From a phage, in the NCBI GenBank assembly GCA_014437165.1, contig GCA_014437165.1_4090.3: a DNA stretch of 64,000 nt. The stretch is one strand, 5' to 3'. Under the pieces are notes generated by a model, which saw only the letters and a list, made by a program, of their open reading frames with translations, was not told the origin of the DNA and searched no databases. Both the position numbers and the translations under genes were made by a program. This document shows, one piece after another, positions 1-64,000 of the stretch (its first letter is position 1; each line of letters begins with the position of its first letter).

Positions 1-44
1 TTACTAACAAAGATTTAGCGTTAGATGCTAAAGCTAAAACTAAA

Positions 45-338
45 ATGTCTGCTCATTATGCTGCTCTTATGTCTCGTTCTGTGTACGTGGATTTACAGAT
101 TCAGACTAAAAGTGATATCATGATTCATATTGAAAATGTAATGACTAAGACTAATATTCTTGCATCTAAAGGTGTTAACAGTAACGGTAGTAAAGCAATT
201 CTGAATTGGATGTTGAAGCACGAAGATTCTCTTCGTTCACCTTCACTGCGTATGCCACTGTTGATTTCGGCAGTATATAACAACAACCCATACGATTGGG
301 AAGAACAGTGCGAAAACTTGTTCCTTGAAAAAATTTAA
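45..338 (+). CDS. hypothetical protein; frame is open back to window start, so may be the 3' part of a longer gene
   Basis: 97-aa ORF from ATG at 45; no in-frame stop between position 3 and 45. Confidence 0.4.
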   Translation: MSAHYAALMSRSVYVDLQIQTKSDIMIHIENVMTKTNILASKGVNSNGSKAILNWMLKHEDSLRSPSLRMPLLISAVYNNNPYDWEEQCENLFLEKI

Positions 339-403
339 TTCAATATTGACAGTACTAACAATGTGTAGTACTATAACAAAAGTTTAATCACTGGAGACAC
401 CCA

Positions 404-745
404 ATGCGTGAGTTTTTTGAATCTAATATAATGCTTGGTATTACACTGATATACATGTTTGTATTCTTGTTTTATCATTCAATTGTAATTAGTCTTTGGT
501 ATTTTAAAAGGAAAGTTGTTTTTAAATTGTATTCGTATGATAATGTATTCTTAGTTGTATATAGCATTATACAAGGTGGGTTTATTTTATTTGGTGTGAT
601 GACATATGTGATTTACATGTTACAAATTGATAACACACCACACATTACACAATATGTTGTGTTTTCAGGACTAATCGTCTGGTTATTGGTGTGTACTATG
701 TACTTTATTATTAAAGCTCGTAATAACTTTAAATGGGGATTCTAA
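404..745 (+). CDS. small 3-TM membrane protein, paralog array member
   Basis: three hydrophobic helices; SD GGAGA upstream; TTGACA/TATAAC-like promoter around 350-385; similar to next ORF (LIYxF.FLFYH..V..LWYFK+K.VFKLY). Confidence 0.6.
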   Translation: MREFFESNIMLGITLIYMFVFLFYHSIVISLWYFKRKVVFKLYSYDNVFLVVYSIIQGGFILFGVMTYVIYMLQIDNTPHITQYVVFSGLIVWLLVCTMYFIIKARNNFKWGF

Positions 746-1083
746 TGTTAGAATTTTTTAAATCAGATACAATGATTAGTATTACTTTGATTTATCTGTT
801 TGGTTTTTTCTTTTATCATGCACTAGTTGTAGTACTATGGTATTTTAAAAAGAAAATTGTTTTTAAACTGTATCCAGTGAGGAATTCATCACTAGTTCTT
901 TACACACTTGTTCAAGGTTTGTTTGCAATTGTTGGTCTTATGGCACACTTAATTTATTGTGCTAATCCTCACTTGAACTCAATCTCACAATATATTGTAT
1001 TCTTTGGGTTGTTCATTTGGTTAGTTGTATACTTAATCCATCTCATTATTCATGGTAGAGATAAAATTCGCGGAGACTTCTAA
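733..1083 (+). CDS. small 3-TM membrane protein paralog
   Basis: overlaps previous stop; strongly similar to 404-745 product. Confidence 0.6.
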   Translation: MGILMLEFFKSDTMISITLIYLFGFFFYHALVVVLWYFKKKIVFKLYPVRNSSLVLYTLVQGLFAIVGLMAHLIYCANPHLNSISQYIVFFGLFIWLVVYLIHLIIHGRDKIRGDF

Positions 1084-1430
1084 TGTTTGAAGCTTATCTT
1101 GAGTTTTTAAGGAGTAGTCCAGTTGCACATTCACTTGCAGGGATTATTCTAACAACTTATGTATCATTTTGGGTAGTTATGTTTCTAGGATGGTATTTTA
1201 AACGACAATTCTATAAACGTAATGGTGAAGATTTTATGAATTCTGTCATTAATCAATCGTTGTTTGCATCAACATTGATTGCATGTATTGTAGCAACACT
1301 CACAGGAAAGGTACTACCAGCTTTTTCCGCAGTTTACGGCACACTTGGGATGATATGTTTAACTTTTATATTGACCATTAAAATTTGTTGTGTTATGATT
1401 GAACTTCGAAATAAGATACCGGAGGAATGA
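1083..1430 (+). CDS. small multi-TM membrane protein paralog
   Basis: ATGA/TAATG stop-start overlap; hydrophobic helices; WYFKR motif. Confidence 0.55.
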   Translation: MFEAYLEFLRSSPVAHSLAGIILTTYVSFWVVMFLGWYFKRQFYKRNGEDFMNSVINQSLFASTLIACIVATLTGKVLPAFSAVYGTLGMICLTFILTIKICCVMIELRNKIPEE

Positions 1431-1765
1431 TGGAGTACTTTATTGATTTACTGCCGTGGTATATGAAAGTTAGTACTTTGTACTATATTATTAGTGCTGG
1501 ATTCTACTTTCTGATGTGGTTCTTCAAACGACCAATTTCAGTATTCATCGCTGATAACATGCTGCAATTAAAATTACACGCATGGTTTGGTATGGCGATG
1601 ATTATGCCTATTATTCACTACTCAATGATTAGTAGAGGTTTCCGTTCTAATGGTGAACCAATTGTATTAGTATTCTATTGGGGTTCAACTATTGCATATG
1701 TAAGTTTGTTGTTGTTCCCAGTCGTTCATAAATTACGTGCTAAAGTTCCTGATGCGAGGTACTAA
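1427..1765 (+). CDS. small multi-TM membrane protein paralog
   Basis: ATGA overlap; hydrophobic; WFFKRP motif. Confidence 0.55.
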   Translation: MMEYFIDLLPWYMKVSTLYYIISAGFYFLMWFFKRPISVFIADNMLQLKLHAWFGMAMIMPIIHYSMISRGFRSNGEPIVLVFYWGSTIAYVSLLLFPVVHKLRAKVPDARY

Positions 1766-2079
1766 TGGATATCGTAACATTGATTTACACGTTGTATTCA
1801 TTCTATTTCATTATGTGTTGGGTTGGATTTTTATTTGTACTGAAGATGTTTGATTATGTTGAAAAACAGATAAAAGAATTTTGTATTCCTTTTATTGGGT
1901 CAACCATTATTAGTATTACTTGTTTGTATTATTTGGTATGTGATCCACCTGATAATACAGCAATGATTGACTTGATGTTACTACCAACAACTGTTACTTT
2001 TTTATGTAGTCTGATGCCGCCGATTAGCCGTGGACTAACAGAATTTAGACGCAATCAAAAGCGTAAACGAGGGATGTAA
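1765..2079 (+). CDS. small membrane protein
   Basis: translationally coupled; hydrophobic helices. Confidence 0.5.
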   Translation: MDIVTLIYTLYSFYFIMCWVGFLFVLKMFDYVEKQIKEFCIPFIGSTIISITCLYYLVCDPPDNTAMIDLMLLPTTVTFLCSLMPPISRGLTEFRRNQKRKRGM

Positions 2080-62022: not shown

Positions 62023-62218
62023 TCGAATTGAATACATGAGAACTGTGAGTGCAGTGTGGGACATATGGTTCACTACTAAACCAAAAATGGATTACCATGA
62101 CTTTAAGCTCTTGTTCTTCGTTGGCTCTAACAAACAGGATGTTGCAATGAAGGGTTATATTCAGCACTTACAGGAACTAATCCAGAAGAGAATATATGAA
62201 AATAATAGACCAAAATGA
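61997..62218 (+). CDS. family B small protein (dispersed copy)
   Basis: FVGSNKQDVAMKGYIQHLQELIQKRI. Confidence 0.55.
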   Translation: MMKYSKTFNRIEYMRTVSAVWDIWFTTKPKMDYHDFKLLFFVGSNKQDVAMKGYIQHLQELIQKRIYENNRPK

Positions 62219-62387
62219 CATTGCTAAACTATTCAATATATATTCTACTAGAATGATGCAAACAGACTCATATAGTACTGAATTCAAAGAGTTGAAAGTC
62301 CTGATGTACTTGGGAACCCAATATCAGGAACAAGTTATTTTGGAATATATTAATTCGCTGAAGAAGGATATCCGTTATGTACGATGA
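62196..62387 (+). CDS. family B small protein (dispersed copy)
   Basis: YLGTQYQEQVILEYINSLKKDI. Confidence 0.6.
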   Translation: MKIIDQNDIAKLFNIYSTRMMQTDSYSTEFKELKVLMYLGTQYQEQVILEYINSLKKDIRYVR

Positions 62388-62937
62388 TTTAGATATTGCG
62401 TTTGAACGTATGGTAATTTTAATGCAATGTGCAGAAATGCATGAAACAATCCGTCGCACCAAAGGGATTGAATATACAAGTAAACTATTCTCATACGAAA
62501 GTCGTCGAGGGATGGATCATTTTTACTGCACTGATTGTTCAAAGTTTTCAGTACTGAAATATTATCATCCTACTGTTTCCAATAATAGTTTAATATCCAC
62601 ATATGACGGTGATCTGTTTAGTGTAATGTATGACACATTACATCCATCAATTTCAATCTATAAAGATTGCGATAGTAGTTTATCGTATATAATTGAAGAT
62701 TACTTATCTCCTAATACTGAAGAGAATATTTTTCAGAACAGTGTGTTGCATGATGAATTAAGTATAAAATGCATCTATATGTTCAATAAGTTAAAAGAGT
62801 ACGCCGATAATAATTACTTAATTGATAAGTTAGCAGTATTGTCTGTTTCCGTTTTTAATACAAATGACATTGATATGAAATACTATAATGAGATTTGTAA
62901 AGTACATCATATGTATAAGGAACTATTATGTCAATAA
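62377..62937 (+). CDS. family C protein (…EENIFQNSVLHDELS…)
   Basis: core motif. Confidence 0.6.
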   Translation: MYDDLDIAFERMVILMQCAEMHETIRRTKGIEYTSKLFSYESRRGMDHFYCTDCSKFSVLKYYHPTVSNNSLISTYDGDLFSVMYDTLHPSISIYKDCDSSLSYIIEDYLSPNTEENIFQNSVLHDELSIKCIYMFNKLKEYADNNYLIDKLAVLSVSVFNTNDIDMKYYNEICKVHHMYKELLCQ

Positions 62938-63530
62938 ATGCAAATAAATGTTGTAGTGCAGATGTGCATTTGTTTTTTAAGAAATTAGCAAATGATATTA
63001 TATATATGCAGGAAATGATTTATCACAAACGAGCGGATTTAGAAAAAGCATTAGTACAGTTCTCATTTATGCTTGATGGTGATATATTTCTAGAGAGTGA
63101 TGCATTGCGAATAGTATTAGACAAAAATGCTAAAAGATTTTTATTTCATATAGATAATAAATTATGTTCCTCCGTATGTCGTACTTTTTATAATCGTGAT
63201 TCGGACTTATATCAATTCCTTTATTCTAAAGGTGCAGTAGAAGCATCATATGGTGATGGTTATGCCCTAGGAAAGAGTATTCCATTTATGAAATCATTTA
63301 AAATAGAACACATCAGTACTGATGAAGATGCAATGTTCACAAATGATATAACTATGGGACGTGAAGATGCAATGCGATATATTACAAATTCTATGCATAC
63401 ATTCTTTCAACGAACAGAATTTGATAATGTATATATATCAAATGTAAATATTTTCAATGACCTGTGTCAGTACTTGAGAAGTGTTTGTGATTTTGATGAA
63501 AGCTATTGTAAGCTTTATACTGAGGTATAA
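62928..63530 (+). CDS. hypothetical protein (200 aa)
   Basis: coupled ORF. Confidence 0.5.
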   Translation: MSINANKCCSADVHLFFKKLANDIIYMQEMIYHKRADLEKALVQFSFMLDGDIFLESDALRIVLDKNAKRFLFHIDNKLCSSVCRTFYNRDSDLYQFLYSKGAVEASYGDGYALGKSIPFMKSFKIEHISTDEDAMFTNDITMGREDAMRYITNSMHTFFQRTEFDNVYISNVNIFNDLCQYLRSVCDFDESYCKLYTEV

Positions 63531-63535
63531 AACAA

Positions 63536-63898
63536 ATGAACACATTAAGTATTACATACTATACAACTAAAAAATTAGTTACTTGTTTAATATCATTGAA
63601 GACAAACCATGATGATATGTTTGATATGGCTGCATATGAATTAGAATTATCAGAAGATGGCTTCAAGAGCTATGAAGTATATAGCTATGTTCGTGAAGAT
63701 GTAATTGACACTACACTAATGCAAGAGGATGAGTTATTCCAAGAAAGTTTAGTATGGGATAATAAGTACGATTGTAACTTTGATTTCTTATGTTTAATCC
63801 AGAAAGAAATGAAAAGAATCTTTGATAATTATCCAGTGAAGAGATTGAGTACTGGACCGGAGCAGTACAGGAGAATTTTATTCCGTTATGAAGACTGA
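63536..63898 (+). CDS. family C protein (…QEDELFQESLVWDNKYDC…)
   Basis: core motif. Confidence 0.6.
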   Translation: MNTLSITYYTTKKLVTCLISLKTNHDDMFDMAAYELELSEDGFKSYEVYSYVREDVIDTTLMQEDELFQESLVWDNKYDCNFDFLCLIQKEMKRIFDNYPVKRLSTGPEQYRRILFRYED

Positions 63899-64000
63899 AT
63901 TAGTGAAAGTAATGTACGCTACTCATATTAAACTACTACTTGTGAAATTTGATTATAATAAAAAACATAATGATTTCTATACTTTAATTCGTGATGAAAA
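63888..64000 (+). CDS. hypothetical protein, 5' fragment running off the window end
   Basis: ATG 63888 overlapping previous stop; open frame to window end. Confidence 0.3.
   Translation, partial: MKTELVKVMYATHIKLLLVKFDYNKKHNDFYTLIRDE

Follow-up and report, generated by a model that had tools for sequence, protein, structure and literature searches.

The hexamer AGTACT pervades the DNA of Rak2-like jumbo phages as the core of a longer palindromic word, and positive selection acting on this DNA word itself is well supported. The analysis was centered on a 64,000-bp stretch of phage DNA (contig GCA_014437165.1_4090.3 of GenBank assembly GCA_014437165.1; hereafter the window), for which a preliminary description had claimed that AGTACT is far more frequent than expected and common in coding sequence, promoter spacers and terminator stems. 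The window contained 265 copies, 12.3 times the mononucleotide expectation (21.6) and 2.4 times that of an order-3 Markov model (108.4; z = 15), under which AGTACT was the most deviant of all 4096 hexamers, followed by CAGTAC and GTACTG; the claimed excess was thereby borne out. Under an order-4 Markov model the ratio was 1.17 (265 versus 226) and is uninformative, because the AGTAC and GTACT counts that feed this model are themselves the signal. GTAC as such was enriched 3-fold, with A...T flanks on 265 of its 628 copies, and the excess of CAGTACTG and TCAGTACTGA was much larger (0.76 ± 0.99 copies in dinucleotide-preserving shuffles and 0.07 expected copies, respectively), as entered here:

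1-64,000, no strand: pervasive AGTACT (265 sites), core of T-N-C-AGTACT-G-N-A, with 52 copies of CAGTACTG and 15 of TCAGTACTGA.

The explanation we prefer, tentatively and at somewhat less than even confidence, is that a DNA-binding protein reads AGTACT, marks phage DNA genome-wide through it and gates early promoters.

The excess held within genes. Gene calls made in this analysis (150 genes, 81% of the window coding) placed 155 sites (58%) inside genes, about three times the number in 300 within-gene synonymous-codon shuffles (53.8 ± 6.5; maximum 72), in keeping with the claim that the word is frequent in coding sequence; codon usage as its source was thus rejected, and the excess survived both nulls (codon-shuffled and order-3 Markov) that had been named as checks on it. 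All three reading frames were enriched 2.7- to 3.3-fold (68, 33 and 54 sites versus 25, 12 and 16 expected), and density was 3.0/kb in coding DNA versus 9.1/kb (110 sites) in non-coding DNA. Moreover the dipeptides Ser-Thr and Val-Leu were over-represented (1.76- and 1.60-fold), while the reversed Thr-Ser and Leu-Val were not; the protein sequence is therefore shaped by the DNA word, not the reverse. By their flanks, the 265 sites were of 218 distinct contexts, and the two largest repeat families accounted for 21 and 15 sites; repeat amplification was rejected as the source of the word on this ground.

The flanks of AGTACT were symmetric and alike in coding and non-coding DNA: C stood at -1 with a frequency of 0.40-0.45 and G at +1 with 0.46-0.50, T was preferred at -3 (0.43) and A at +3, and G at -1 (0.08) and C at +1 were avoided. 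The preferred full form is T-N-C-AGTACT-G-N-A, and this consensus consists of two overlapping, oppositely oriented copies of 5'-(T)CAGTAC-3' (written out as oligonucleotides, the palindrome is TTCAGTACTGAA and the half-site TCAGTACA). Outside two AGTACT-free blocks (see below), the 5'-A and 3'-T around GTAC were associated with an odds ratio of 4.3, so the palindrome is favoured beyond two independent half-sites; genome-wide, CAGTACTG was 59 times over expectation. Since symmetric flank preferences are unexpected for a Type II methyltransferase or restriction enzyme, they point to a protein footprint of ~12 bp.

A hexameric core of this kind is also found in the binding site GTGAGTACTCAC of the host nucleoid-occlusion factor SlmA, which is identical to AGTACT at its center (PMC3020112), and phage DNA might arrest cell division by activating SlmA or titrating it away; a role for such a host factor, conserved in Enterobacteriaceae, would account for the same word in unrelated elements (see below). 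The SlmA site is 12 bp long, G-T-R-A-G-Y-R-C-T-Y-A-C, with G1, T2, A4 and G5 required and a purine at position 3 (PMC3020112), whereas phage sites have T at -3, no T preference at -2, C at -1, and G at -1 in only 8%. Allowing at most one mismatch, GTRAGYRCTYAC matched once versus 1.4 expected. The phage thus selects other outer bases than SlmA requires, and SlmA hijack is in effect refuted at the level of sequence and hardly credible. Half-site resemblances to the sites of TrpR, LexA, Cra and ArgR were dropped for mismatched half-site order or spacing.

Sites were conserved well above their surroundings. In a comparison with phage TH47 (87.5% identity), 168 of 210 AGTACT sites were intact (80%) versus 61% of neighbouring control hexamers. 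Between orthologues of Escherichia and Klebsiella phages, AGTACT density remained 1.8-2.6/kb in every class of amino-acid identity, down to below 50%; in that lowest class 9 of 53 sites were at the same position (~0.1 expected by chance), and at 80% identity or more 13 of 29 positions were shared. Positional conservation far above chance thus goes together with turnover at a maintained density. Several lines of evidence therefore support selection at the DNA level: i) all frames are enriched; ii) non-coding DNA is denser in sites than coding DNA; iii) Ser-Thr and Val-Leu are inflated; iv) sites are conserved; and v) density is kept across genera. Restriction-site avoidance, which as a class depletes palindromes, does not fit AGTACT (12-fold over the mononucleotide and 2.4-fold over the order-3 expectation); it does fit GCGC, which was absent from the window (0 versus 44 ± 6.8 expected).

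Both traits extended through the clade, the excess of AGTACT reaching Klebsiella and Cronobacter relatives and GCGC being absent from all Rak2-like sequences examined:

EC22.5-2, complete, 352 kb: AGTACT 919 (119 expected), GCGC 0.
Klebsiella Alcyoneusvirus OU509535.1, 348 kb: AGTACT 945 (117 expected), GCGC 0 (224 expected).
RaK2, 25 kb of core genes: AGTACT 58 (8.2 expected), GCGC 0.
GAP32, 25 kb of core genes: AGTACT 53 (8.4 expected), GCGC 0.

Every 5-kb bin of EC22.5-2 held 4-39 sites, two empty blocks excepted. The baseline in Rak2-like phage DNA was ~2.6 AGTACT/kb versus 0.06/kb in a 50-kb sample of E. coli K-12, where AGTACT occurred 3 times (11.6 expected) and GCGC 342 times (6.8/kb). 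The absence of GCGC suggests exposure to a GCGC-directed nuclease, possibly the phage's own host-DNA-degrading enzyme. As to other words, GAGGAG/CTCCTC was absent from all Asteriusvirus sequence examined (0 versus 48 + 21 expected in EC22.5-2) and rare, not absent, in the Klebsiella relative and in the ~33-kb elements described below, and AGGAGG and GGAGGT were depleted ~5-fold.

By sequence matching, the window belongs to an Asteriusvirus (121Q/G17-type, Rak2-like) jumbo coliphage: Asteriusvirus coliphages (G17, Sharanji, CRJP21, 121Q, PBECO4 and others) matched it at 90-99% identity in mosaic blocks, and among these matches no database record was identical to it. The counterpart of window position 20,000 in vB_Ec-M-J was position 197, within a direct terminal repeat (DTR) annotated at 1-21,525, and the DTRs of relatives measure 20,668 bp (Sharanji; PMC11895373) and 20,993 bp (fEgEco12; PMC13070987). 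From this homology, the left physical genome end probably lies near 19.8 kb, the DTR would occupy ~19.8-41.3 kb, and 1-19.8 kb would be the right end of the unique sequence. Neither tRNAs nor, at the gathering threshold, matches to Rfam covariance models were found anywhere in the window.

19,800-41,300, plus strand: putative DTR and early-gene zone, boundaries by homology; ~140 AGTACT; small plus-strand genes with their own sigma-70 promoters.
19,541-21,504, no strand: gene-free ~2 kb at the probable left genome terminus; 20 AGTACT, mostly as (G)ATTC-AGTACT-GA(A/T).

The sites were concentrated in this zone, a check of positional bias revealing a dense stretch at ~19.8-41 kb as well as the two AGTACT-free blocks. 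The DTR held 140 sites in 21 kb (~7/kb overall and ~10/kb in its non-coding DNA), and outside the dense zone intergenic densities (3.4 and 2.4/kb) were near those of coding DNA (2.2 and 2.4/kb). Sites therefore form two layers: an even baseline over the whole genome and, on top of it, sites set at fixed places in early promoters.

A separate sigma-70 promoter serves each small plus-strand gene of the DTR, in most cases with a leader hairpin and a Shine-Dalgarno sequence downstream, and AGTACT stood at three preferred offsets upstream of the -10 element: i) 27 nt, as AGTAC/TTGCAA, with a T shared with the -35 hexamer (18 cases); ii) 17 nt, as TTGAC/AGTACT, overlapping the 3' end of the -35 (6-9 cases); and iii) 7 nt, as AGTACTG/TATAAT (13 cases). 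The same offsets (7, 17 and 27) recurred in EC22.5-2, and those of the Klebsiella relative were 7-8, 13 and 27-28. The placement of the word in promoter spacers, which the preliminary description had noted, was substantiated by TTGACAGTACT (8 copies in the window versus 0.07 expected), AGTACTGTATAA (11 copies) and AAAGTACTTGCA (15 copies). Elsewhere in the DTR, sites followed stop codons and preceded terminator hairpins, in the form (A)TTC-AGTACT-GAA(T).

25,168-25,200, plus strand: early promoter with both sites, AGTAC/TTGCAA (-35), N, AGTACTG/TATAAT (-10), at the offset peaks 27 and 7.
29,066-29,076, plus strand: third placement, TTGAC/AGTACT, in which the word overlaps the -35 at its 3' end; the window has 8 of these.

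The ~12-bp symmetric consensus and the conserved promoter offsets favour a DNA-binding protein as the reader. In this view AGTACT lies at the heart of a DNA-level signal under positive selection, and a factor acting in trans would recognize its sequence. This factor would most likely be a DNA-binding protein seated on the palindrome as a dimer, and the signal would identify jumbo phage DNA throughout the Rak2-like lineage. In the DTR, where the word lies flush against the -35 or -10, occupancy would gate early transcription. Paired with the absolute avoidance of GCGC, the word would allow phage DNA to be told from host DNA with ease. Enrichment, selection, placement, distribution over the clade, coupling to the absence of GCGC and half-site polarity are direct observations; a protein as reader, control of early promoters by it and a self/non-self role for the two words are inferred.

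Other features of the DTR were also repeated. A 5'-leader hairpin, GGGGA(A/G)-N4-7-(T/C)TCCCC, was conserved in most DTR genes (window 21,900-40,100, e.g., 21,925-21,945 and 23,960-23,980) directly after the transcription start region, the leaders forming a repeated promoter-hairpin cassette. Boxes of ~15-20 nt, such as GCACCC(G/A)GTGGG(T/C)TAG and GGGTGC(A/G)GGAGTGTATC, recurred in non-coding DNA at 19,541-21,504 and between genes near 22.95, 25.55, 29.6, 31.3 and 33.3 kb and had no Rfam match; a GGCTAGA-rich stretch lay near 20.6-20.8 kb. A tandem-repeat scan of the terminal non-coding region returned weak short repeats only. GATC occurred 92 times in the DTR (72 expected) and was depleted 2- to 7-fold in the rest of the window (e.g., 1 versus 7.2, 9 versus 21.7 and 12 versus 36.8).

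Terminators presented a more limited picture than the preliminary description, in which AGTACT formed the stems of nearly all minus-strand terminators. In five minus-strand terminators AGTACT was indeed part of the stem (GCCAGUAC-NNN-GUACUGGC, then a U-run; dG -12 to -14 kcal/mol), but "nearly all" did not stand, and the five are not independent, because all belong to one array of paralogous RCC1-repeat genes. The G17 annotation has ARNOLD terminators at the homologous places.

9,087-9,105, minus strand: intrinsic terminator with stem GCCAGUAC/GUACUGGC, one of five paralogous copies behind RCC1-repeat genes.
9,897-9,915, 11,157-11,175, ~12,380-12,400 and ~13,620-13,640, minus strand: the other four RCC1 terminators, paralogous copies.

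The array itself comprised ~ten minus-strand genes (window 4,346-15,962) with a common start region (reverse complement of AAAAGGTAACAT, 10 copies), a common promoter/leader and the paralogous terminators; its genes held 27 AGTACT, 20 of them in frame 0 (Ser-Thr).

Such copies raise the question of whether the word has any function or is a by-product, either of biased mutation or repair (very-short-patch-like repair, or methylated GCGC decaying into GTAC) or of repeated promoter and terminator cassettes that spread. Double deamination of the inner cytosines would turn GCGC into GTAC, GTGC/GCAC are mildly raised (1.4-1.6), 36 DTR sites fall in two repeated promoter families, and the terminator copies are paralogous. 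However the mass balance fails, as the excess of GTAC in the window (~420) far exceeds the ~45-60 missing GCGC; one-mismatch neighbours of AGTACT are not depleted; the 265 sites have 218 distinct contexts and are conserved above the local background; and simple bias does not produce the A...T flank, the C/G outer flank or strand-exclusive blocks. An origin without function is therefore very improbable, and its two mutational forms, very-short-patch-like repair and 5-methylcytosine decay, were rejected, AGTATT/AATACT not being depleted and the GCGC-to-GTAC balance failing.

Two blocks that follow the DTR, in both of which every gene is on the plus strand, lacked AGTACT entirely and kept one half of it:

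40,781-46,438, plus strand: polar block 1; AGTACT 0, AGTAC 1 (6.6 expected), GTACT 14, GTACTG 7; mostly cTGTACTGa.
46,439-48,883, plus strand: segment between the blocks, AGTACT dense again (16 sites in 2.4 kb).
48,884-56,589, plus strand: polar block 2; AGTACT 0, AGTAC 44 (7.7 expected), CAGTAC 18 (1.0 expected), GTACT 0 (7.2 expected); t/gCAGTACA.

The half-site 5'-(T)CAGTAC-3' was thus confined to the bottom strand in block 1 and to the top strand in block 2, the opposite orientation being excluded, and the strand check proposed with the original observation accordingly revealed an exclusive bias. In these blocks the half-site was read in all three frames, and random synonymous escape from AGTACT would have mixed AGCACT, AGTATT and AGTTCT, whereas AGTACA/TGTACT was uniform, which argues that the half-element itself is selected. 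In the TH47 comparison, AGTACA of block 2 was somewhat better conserved than the background (25 of 38 versus 49%). The blocks had the same polarity in EC22.5-2 and TH47 and were absent from the Klebsiella relative, and hence are specific to Asteriusvirus. They contain good sigma-70-like promoters without AGTACT, including those near 41,432, 46,139 and 52,339, so the word is not needed for promoter function as such; if a protein reads the word, these promoters and genes would escape its control. Ten block proteins had no Pfam match and no DNA-binding or nuclease domain, and fell into PHROG families without known function.

Strand-exclusive half-sites bear on two further explanations. One places the signal in RNA, with AGUACU as the site of an RNase or RNA-binding protein or as a builder of hairpins, two copies being self-complementary. 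Two copies indeed form the terminator stems of the RCC1 array, DTR sites cluster at gene ends and 5' leaders, and the mRNAs of the blocks lack the full word. For an RNA signal, though, the sense strand alone would suffice, and the preference for the palindrome (odds ratio 4.3) goes beyond that; flanks show symmetry, sites upstream of a -35 fall outside the transcript of that promoter, the element of block 1 is on the antisense strand only, and the window contains no Rfam family. We regard an RNA-level role as quite unlikely on this balance.

The other is a self marker resembling Chi, in which a translocating helicase-nuclease (of the phage, or of the host and other than RecBCD) reads 5'-(T)CAGTAC-3' in one strand, whereupon degradation is attenuated; the palindrome would be the most compact carrier of the element in both orientations, and host DNA, rich in GCGC and poor in AGTAC, would be cut and fully degraded while phage DNA is spared. 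E. coli Chi shows a genome-wide excess in all frames, which the 7- to 8-fold genome-wide excess of AGTACT in all frames resembles. Selection of the half-site alone and strictly by strand in two blocks is what direction-dependent recognition of a single strand predicts, the density of AGTACT peaks in the terminal repeats at both physical genome ends, and coupling with the absence of GCGC is strict, the host sample having 0.06 AGTACT and 6.8 GCGC per kb. Genuine E. coli Chi (GCTGGTGG) was itself abundant, with 11 top-strand and 4 bottom-strand copies in the window versus 0.2 expected per strand. Ten top-strand copies lay inside the DTR (20,403, 21,250, 27,201, 30,920, 32,382, 33,300, 35,843, 37,742, 39,319 and 39,542), an inverted pair (CCACCAGC-TTGT-GCTGGTGG) stood at 20,391-20,410, ~600 bp from the left genome end, and the one-orientation array was also present in EC22.5-2 and the Klebsiella relative. 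Because this array and the inverted pair recur in Escherichia and Klebsiella relatives, DNA-end biology visibly shapes the DTR region, and ~10 Chi in one orientation plus the inverted pair mean that exonuclease pressure on the ends is real.

On the other hand, Chi is not excluded from the opposite orientation in E. coli, so exclusion in the blocks is unexplained by this view, as are the opposite polarities of two blocks that share one direction of transcription, the preference for the palindrome over and above independent half-sites (odds ratio 4.3) and the promoter offsets that are conserved. No helicase-nuclease could be tied to the motif, and a genome-scale switch in half-site orientation, as in Chi or FtsK orienting polar sequences (KOPS), was not seen. 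Compared with a protein reader, a Chi-like marker fits half-site polarity, concentration at ends and coupling with GCGC better, and palindrome preference and promoter placement worse; we consider it unlikely, if the most serious of the alternatives.

The pairing of AGTACT with GCGC avoidance was also found outside the jumbo phages. IMG/VR was scanned for ATTCAGTACTGAAT and, in a second scan, for two CAGTACTG within 25 nt. Low-GC loci with a strong AGTACT excess were all free of GCGC (~30 at 6.7-fold or more in the first scan and 26 at 7-fold or more in the second), versus 3 of 50 loci with an observed/expected ratio below 3. The AGTACT-rich loci fell into two lineages, relatives of the jumbo phages and unrelated contigs of ~31-34 kb with a GC content of ~0.42 (0.40-0.43). 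The latter, referred to as ~33-kb elements, encode a lambda-type large terminase, a lambda-type portal, a protease-capsid fusion and a tail-fibre protein, carry 3-9 AGTACT/kb, mostly in genes and again with C...G flanks, and are integrated in chromosomes of Leclercia, Phytobacter, Enterobacter and Escherichia sp. ESNIH1. At the Enterobacter locus the signature ended sharply at the host junction: inside, AGTACT was 1-8/kb and GCGC ~0; outside, AGTACT was 0 and GCGC 4-19/kb. A related Atlantibacter element (45% terminase identity) had neither trait, while an equally distant Escherichia sp. element had both. Since the signature occurs in unrelated elements and is split between these two, the trait pair tracks something other than ancestry, which could be a shared trans-acting agent (host-encoded or supplied by a partner) or a small undetected system. 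Pfam on the ten genes upstream of the terminase in the Leclercia element gave nothing informative.

The ~33-kb elements may be satellites of Rak2-like phages or their partners in co-infection. Among cultured phages, Escherichia phage DCP80 matched their terminase most closely, and it lacked both traits. In its record (PQ671644.1, 1-40000), a ~30-kb lambda-type head module is joined to T4-like genes (motA, ndd, rIIA), which looks like a chimeric assembly or an unusual hybrid, and GATC is absent from the 40 kb examined, in both parts (~140 expected).

A two-word self/non-self code would accommodate these elements: GCGC-bearing host DNA (6.8/kb) would be destroyed by a sequence-directed nuclease and the phage's own DNA licensed or protected by a strand-specific reading of 5'-(T)CAGTAC-3', a code on which the ~33-kb elements would have converged because they replicate in phage-infected cells, as satellites, hyperparasites or competitors. 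The polar blocks would be places that tolerate only one direction of reader action. We hold this code to be improbable.

Methylation was weighed as a further reading, by analogy with GATC, Dam and SeqA: a phage methyltransferase might target AGTACT, whose state would tell parental from new and phage from host DNA and modulate promoters. AGTACT is a palindromic hexamer that overlaps the RNA-polymerase contact regions of early promoters, adenine and cytosine methylases have been reported in CBB (PMC5259590) and Sharanji (PMC11895373), and EC22.5-2 encodes a Dam-family N6-adenine methyltransferase (PF05869, E = 6e-32) and a C5 methyltransferase (PF00145). Its 919 sites of ScaI/Eco255I type would make this phage highly vulnerable to such restriction unless protected. 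The C5 enzyme, though, is closest to Dnmt3 catalytic domains, which are CpG enzymes, and AGTACT contains no CpG; the deamination products of 5-methylcytosine, AGTATT (1.19) and AATACT (0.95), are unaltered; flank preferences and strand-polar half-sites are not expected of a Type II-like methyltransferase; and in the parts sampled no methyltransferase was common to the jumbo phages and the ~33-kb elements. Furthermore, fEgEco12 DNA was cut as predicted by ten restriction enzymes, ScaI not among them (PMC13070987), and this normal cutting weakens the modification option. An epigenetic mark is therefore rather doubtful; the protein-reader, Chi-like and methylation readings are not mutually exclusive. 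The two EC22.5-2 genes lie at 307,362-308,222 (C5) and 91,151-91,672 (Dam-family), and the C5 enzyme (286 aa) aligned over its full length with the catalytic domains of animal Dnmt3A/B/C (E ~3e-23), above M.HhaI and M.HaeIII. CpG was mildly depleted (0.74-0.81).

Several observations weigh against a DNA-binding protein as the reader: i) among ten larger DTR proteins and the ten block proteins, Pfam revealed no candidate reader; ii) a symmetric dimer does not predict blocks that keep one half-site orientation (44:0 and 1:14), and the opposite polarity of two co-directionally transcribed blocks is explained by neither the symmetric-dimer nor the Chi-like reading; iii) the only protein detected as common to the ~33-kb elements and the jumbo phages is a T4-type lysozyme, and because these unrelated elements carry the trait, a phage-encoded reader would have to act in trans, be host-encoded or have arisen twice; iv) the promoter offsets may come partly from encoding economy rather than regulation, since CAGTACTG fuses with TTGACA and adjoins TATAAT, and a 17-bp spacer offers no other free position; and v) site spacing outside the repeat is nearly Poisson (CV 0.87-0.98) and not regular, with no hint of ordered arrays. 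Thus of the explanation first offered for the word, positive selection for a regulator site, a nucleoid-protein site or a modification target, selection is well supported and the class of explanation is kept, while the modification option has lost ground and no reader emerged from the proteins searched.

Over-represented words with a known reader (Chi, the uptake sequences of Neisseria and Haemophilus, KOPS and GATC) have each revealed a core DNA transaction. Here ~900 copies per genome are kept across at least three genera of 350-kb phages and go together with a complete loss of GCGC. In these jumbo phages a chmA homologue and a nucleus-like compartment are lacking (PMC11895373). AGTACT offers a testable handle on the discrimination of own from host DNA and on the shut-off of ~50 early promoters; restriction of ScaI/Eco255I type should be either devastating to these phages or blocked, and metagenomes could be screened for such phages, and for possible satellites, with the AGTACT/GCGC pair as a simple k-mer classifier.

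An over-represented genomic recognition word is a known kind of feature, and full-text literature searches found no report of an AGTACT motif in these phages. What is new is a palindrome fused from two oriented elements, its strand-polar blocks, its pairing with an absolutely avoided word and its sharing with unrelated integrated elements. Chi (GCTGGTGG in E. coli, with species-specific counterparts in other bacteria) is likewise a short self-marker word in several-fold genome-wide excess, coding DNA and all frames included, and its oriented, single-stranded recognition matches the strand-exclusive half-sites of the two blocks; unlike Chi, the phage word is mainly palindromic, with its orientations fused, excludes the opposite orientation in the blocks, is placed at promoters and has no known helicase-nuclease. 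The DNA uptake sequence (DUS) of Neisseria and the uptake signal sequence (USS) of Haemophilus are also over-represented in genes and intergenic DNA, often form terminators as inverted pairs (compare the RCC1 array) and label self DNA, but they are asymmetric words of 10-12 bp read by bacterial competence machinery, whereas the phage word is a 6-12 bp palindrome in a lytic phage to which uptake is irrelevant. The SlmA-binding sequence GTGAGTACTCAC has the same core within a 12-bp palindrome typical of a TetR-type dimer and differs at the required outer positions.

Among systems of transcription control, the stoperators of cluster A mycobacteriophages (read by L5 gp71) similarly place dozens of copies of one protein-binding word genome-wide, promoters included, for global control; they are asymmetric, 13-14 bp long, intergenic and in one orientation relative to transcription in temperate phages, whereas the lytic jumbo phages carry ~900 palindromes, mostly in genes. 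As for operators or stoperators, promoter positions in the DTR are fixed, and sites are neither confined to intergenic DNA nor oriented by transcription. Comparison with the mobile promoter/stem-loop cassettes (PeSL type) of T4-like phages rests on the DTR promoter families (21 and 15 sites) followed by leader hairpins, yet 218 of 265 contexts are distinct and most sites are coding. GATC, with Dam, SeqA and MutH, is a palindrome found every ~250-400 bp and clustered at special loci and some promoters, and is read via methylation; it reaches this density at about random frequency, whereas AGTACT needs ~8-fold enrichment for it, and AGTACT methylation is a candidate only. The EcoP15I sites of T7 (CAGCAG), finally, are an asymmetric word kept in one orientation over many kb, as in the polar blocks; the T7 bias lets the phage evade a host Type III enzyme, with no enrichment of the word, whereas the phage blocks are 3- to 18-fold enriched in their half-site, have opposite polarities and lie in genomes that elsewhere fuse the two orientations.

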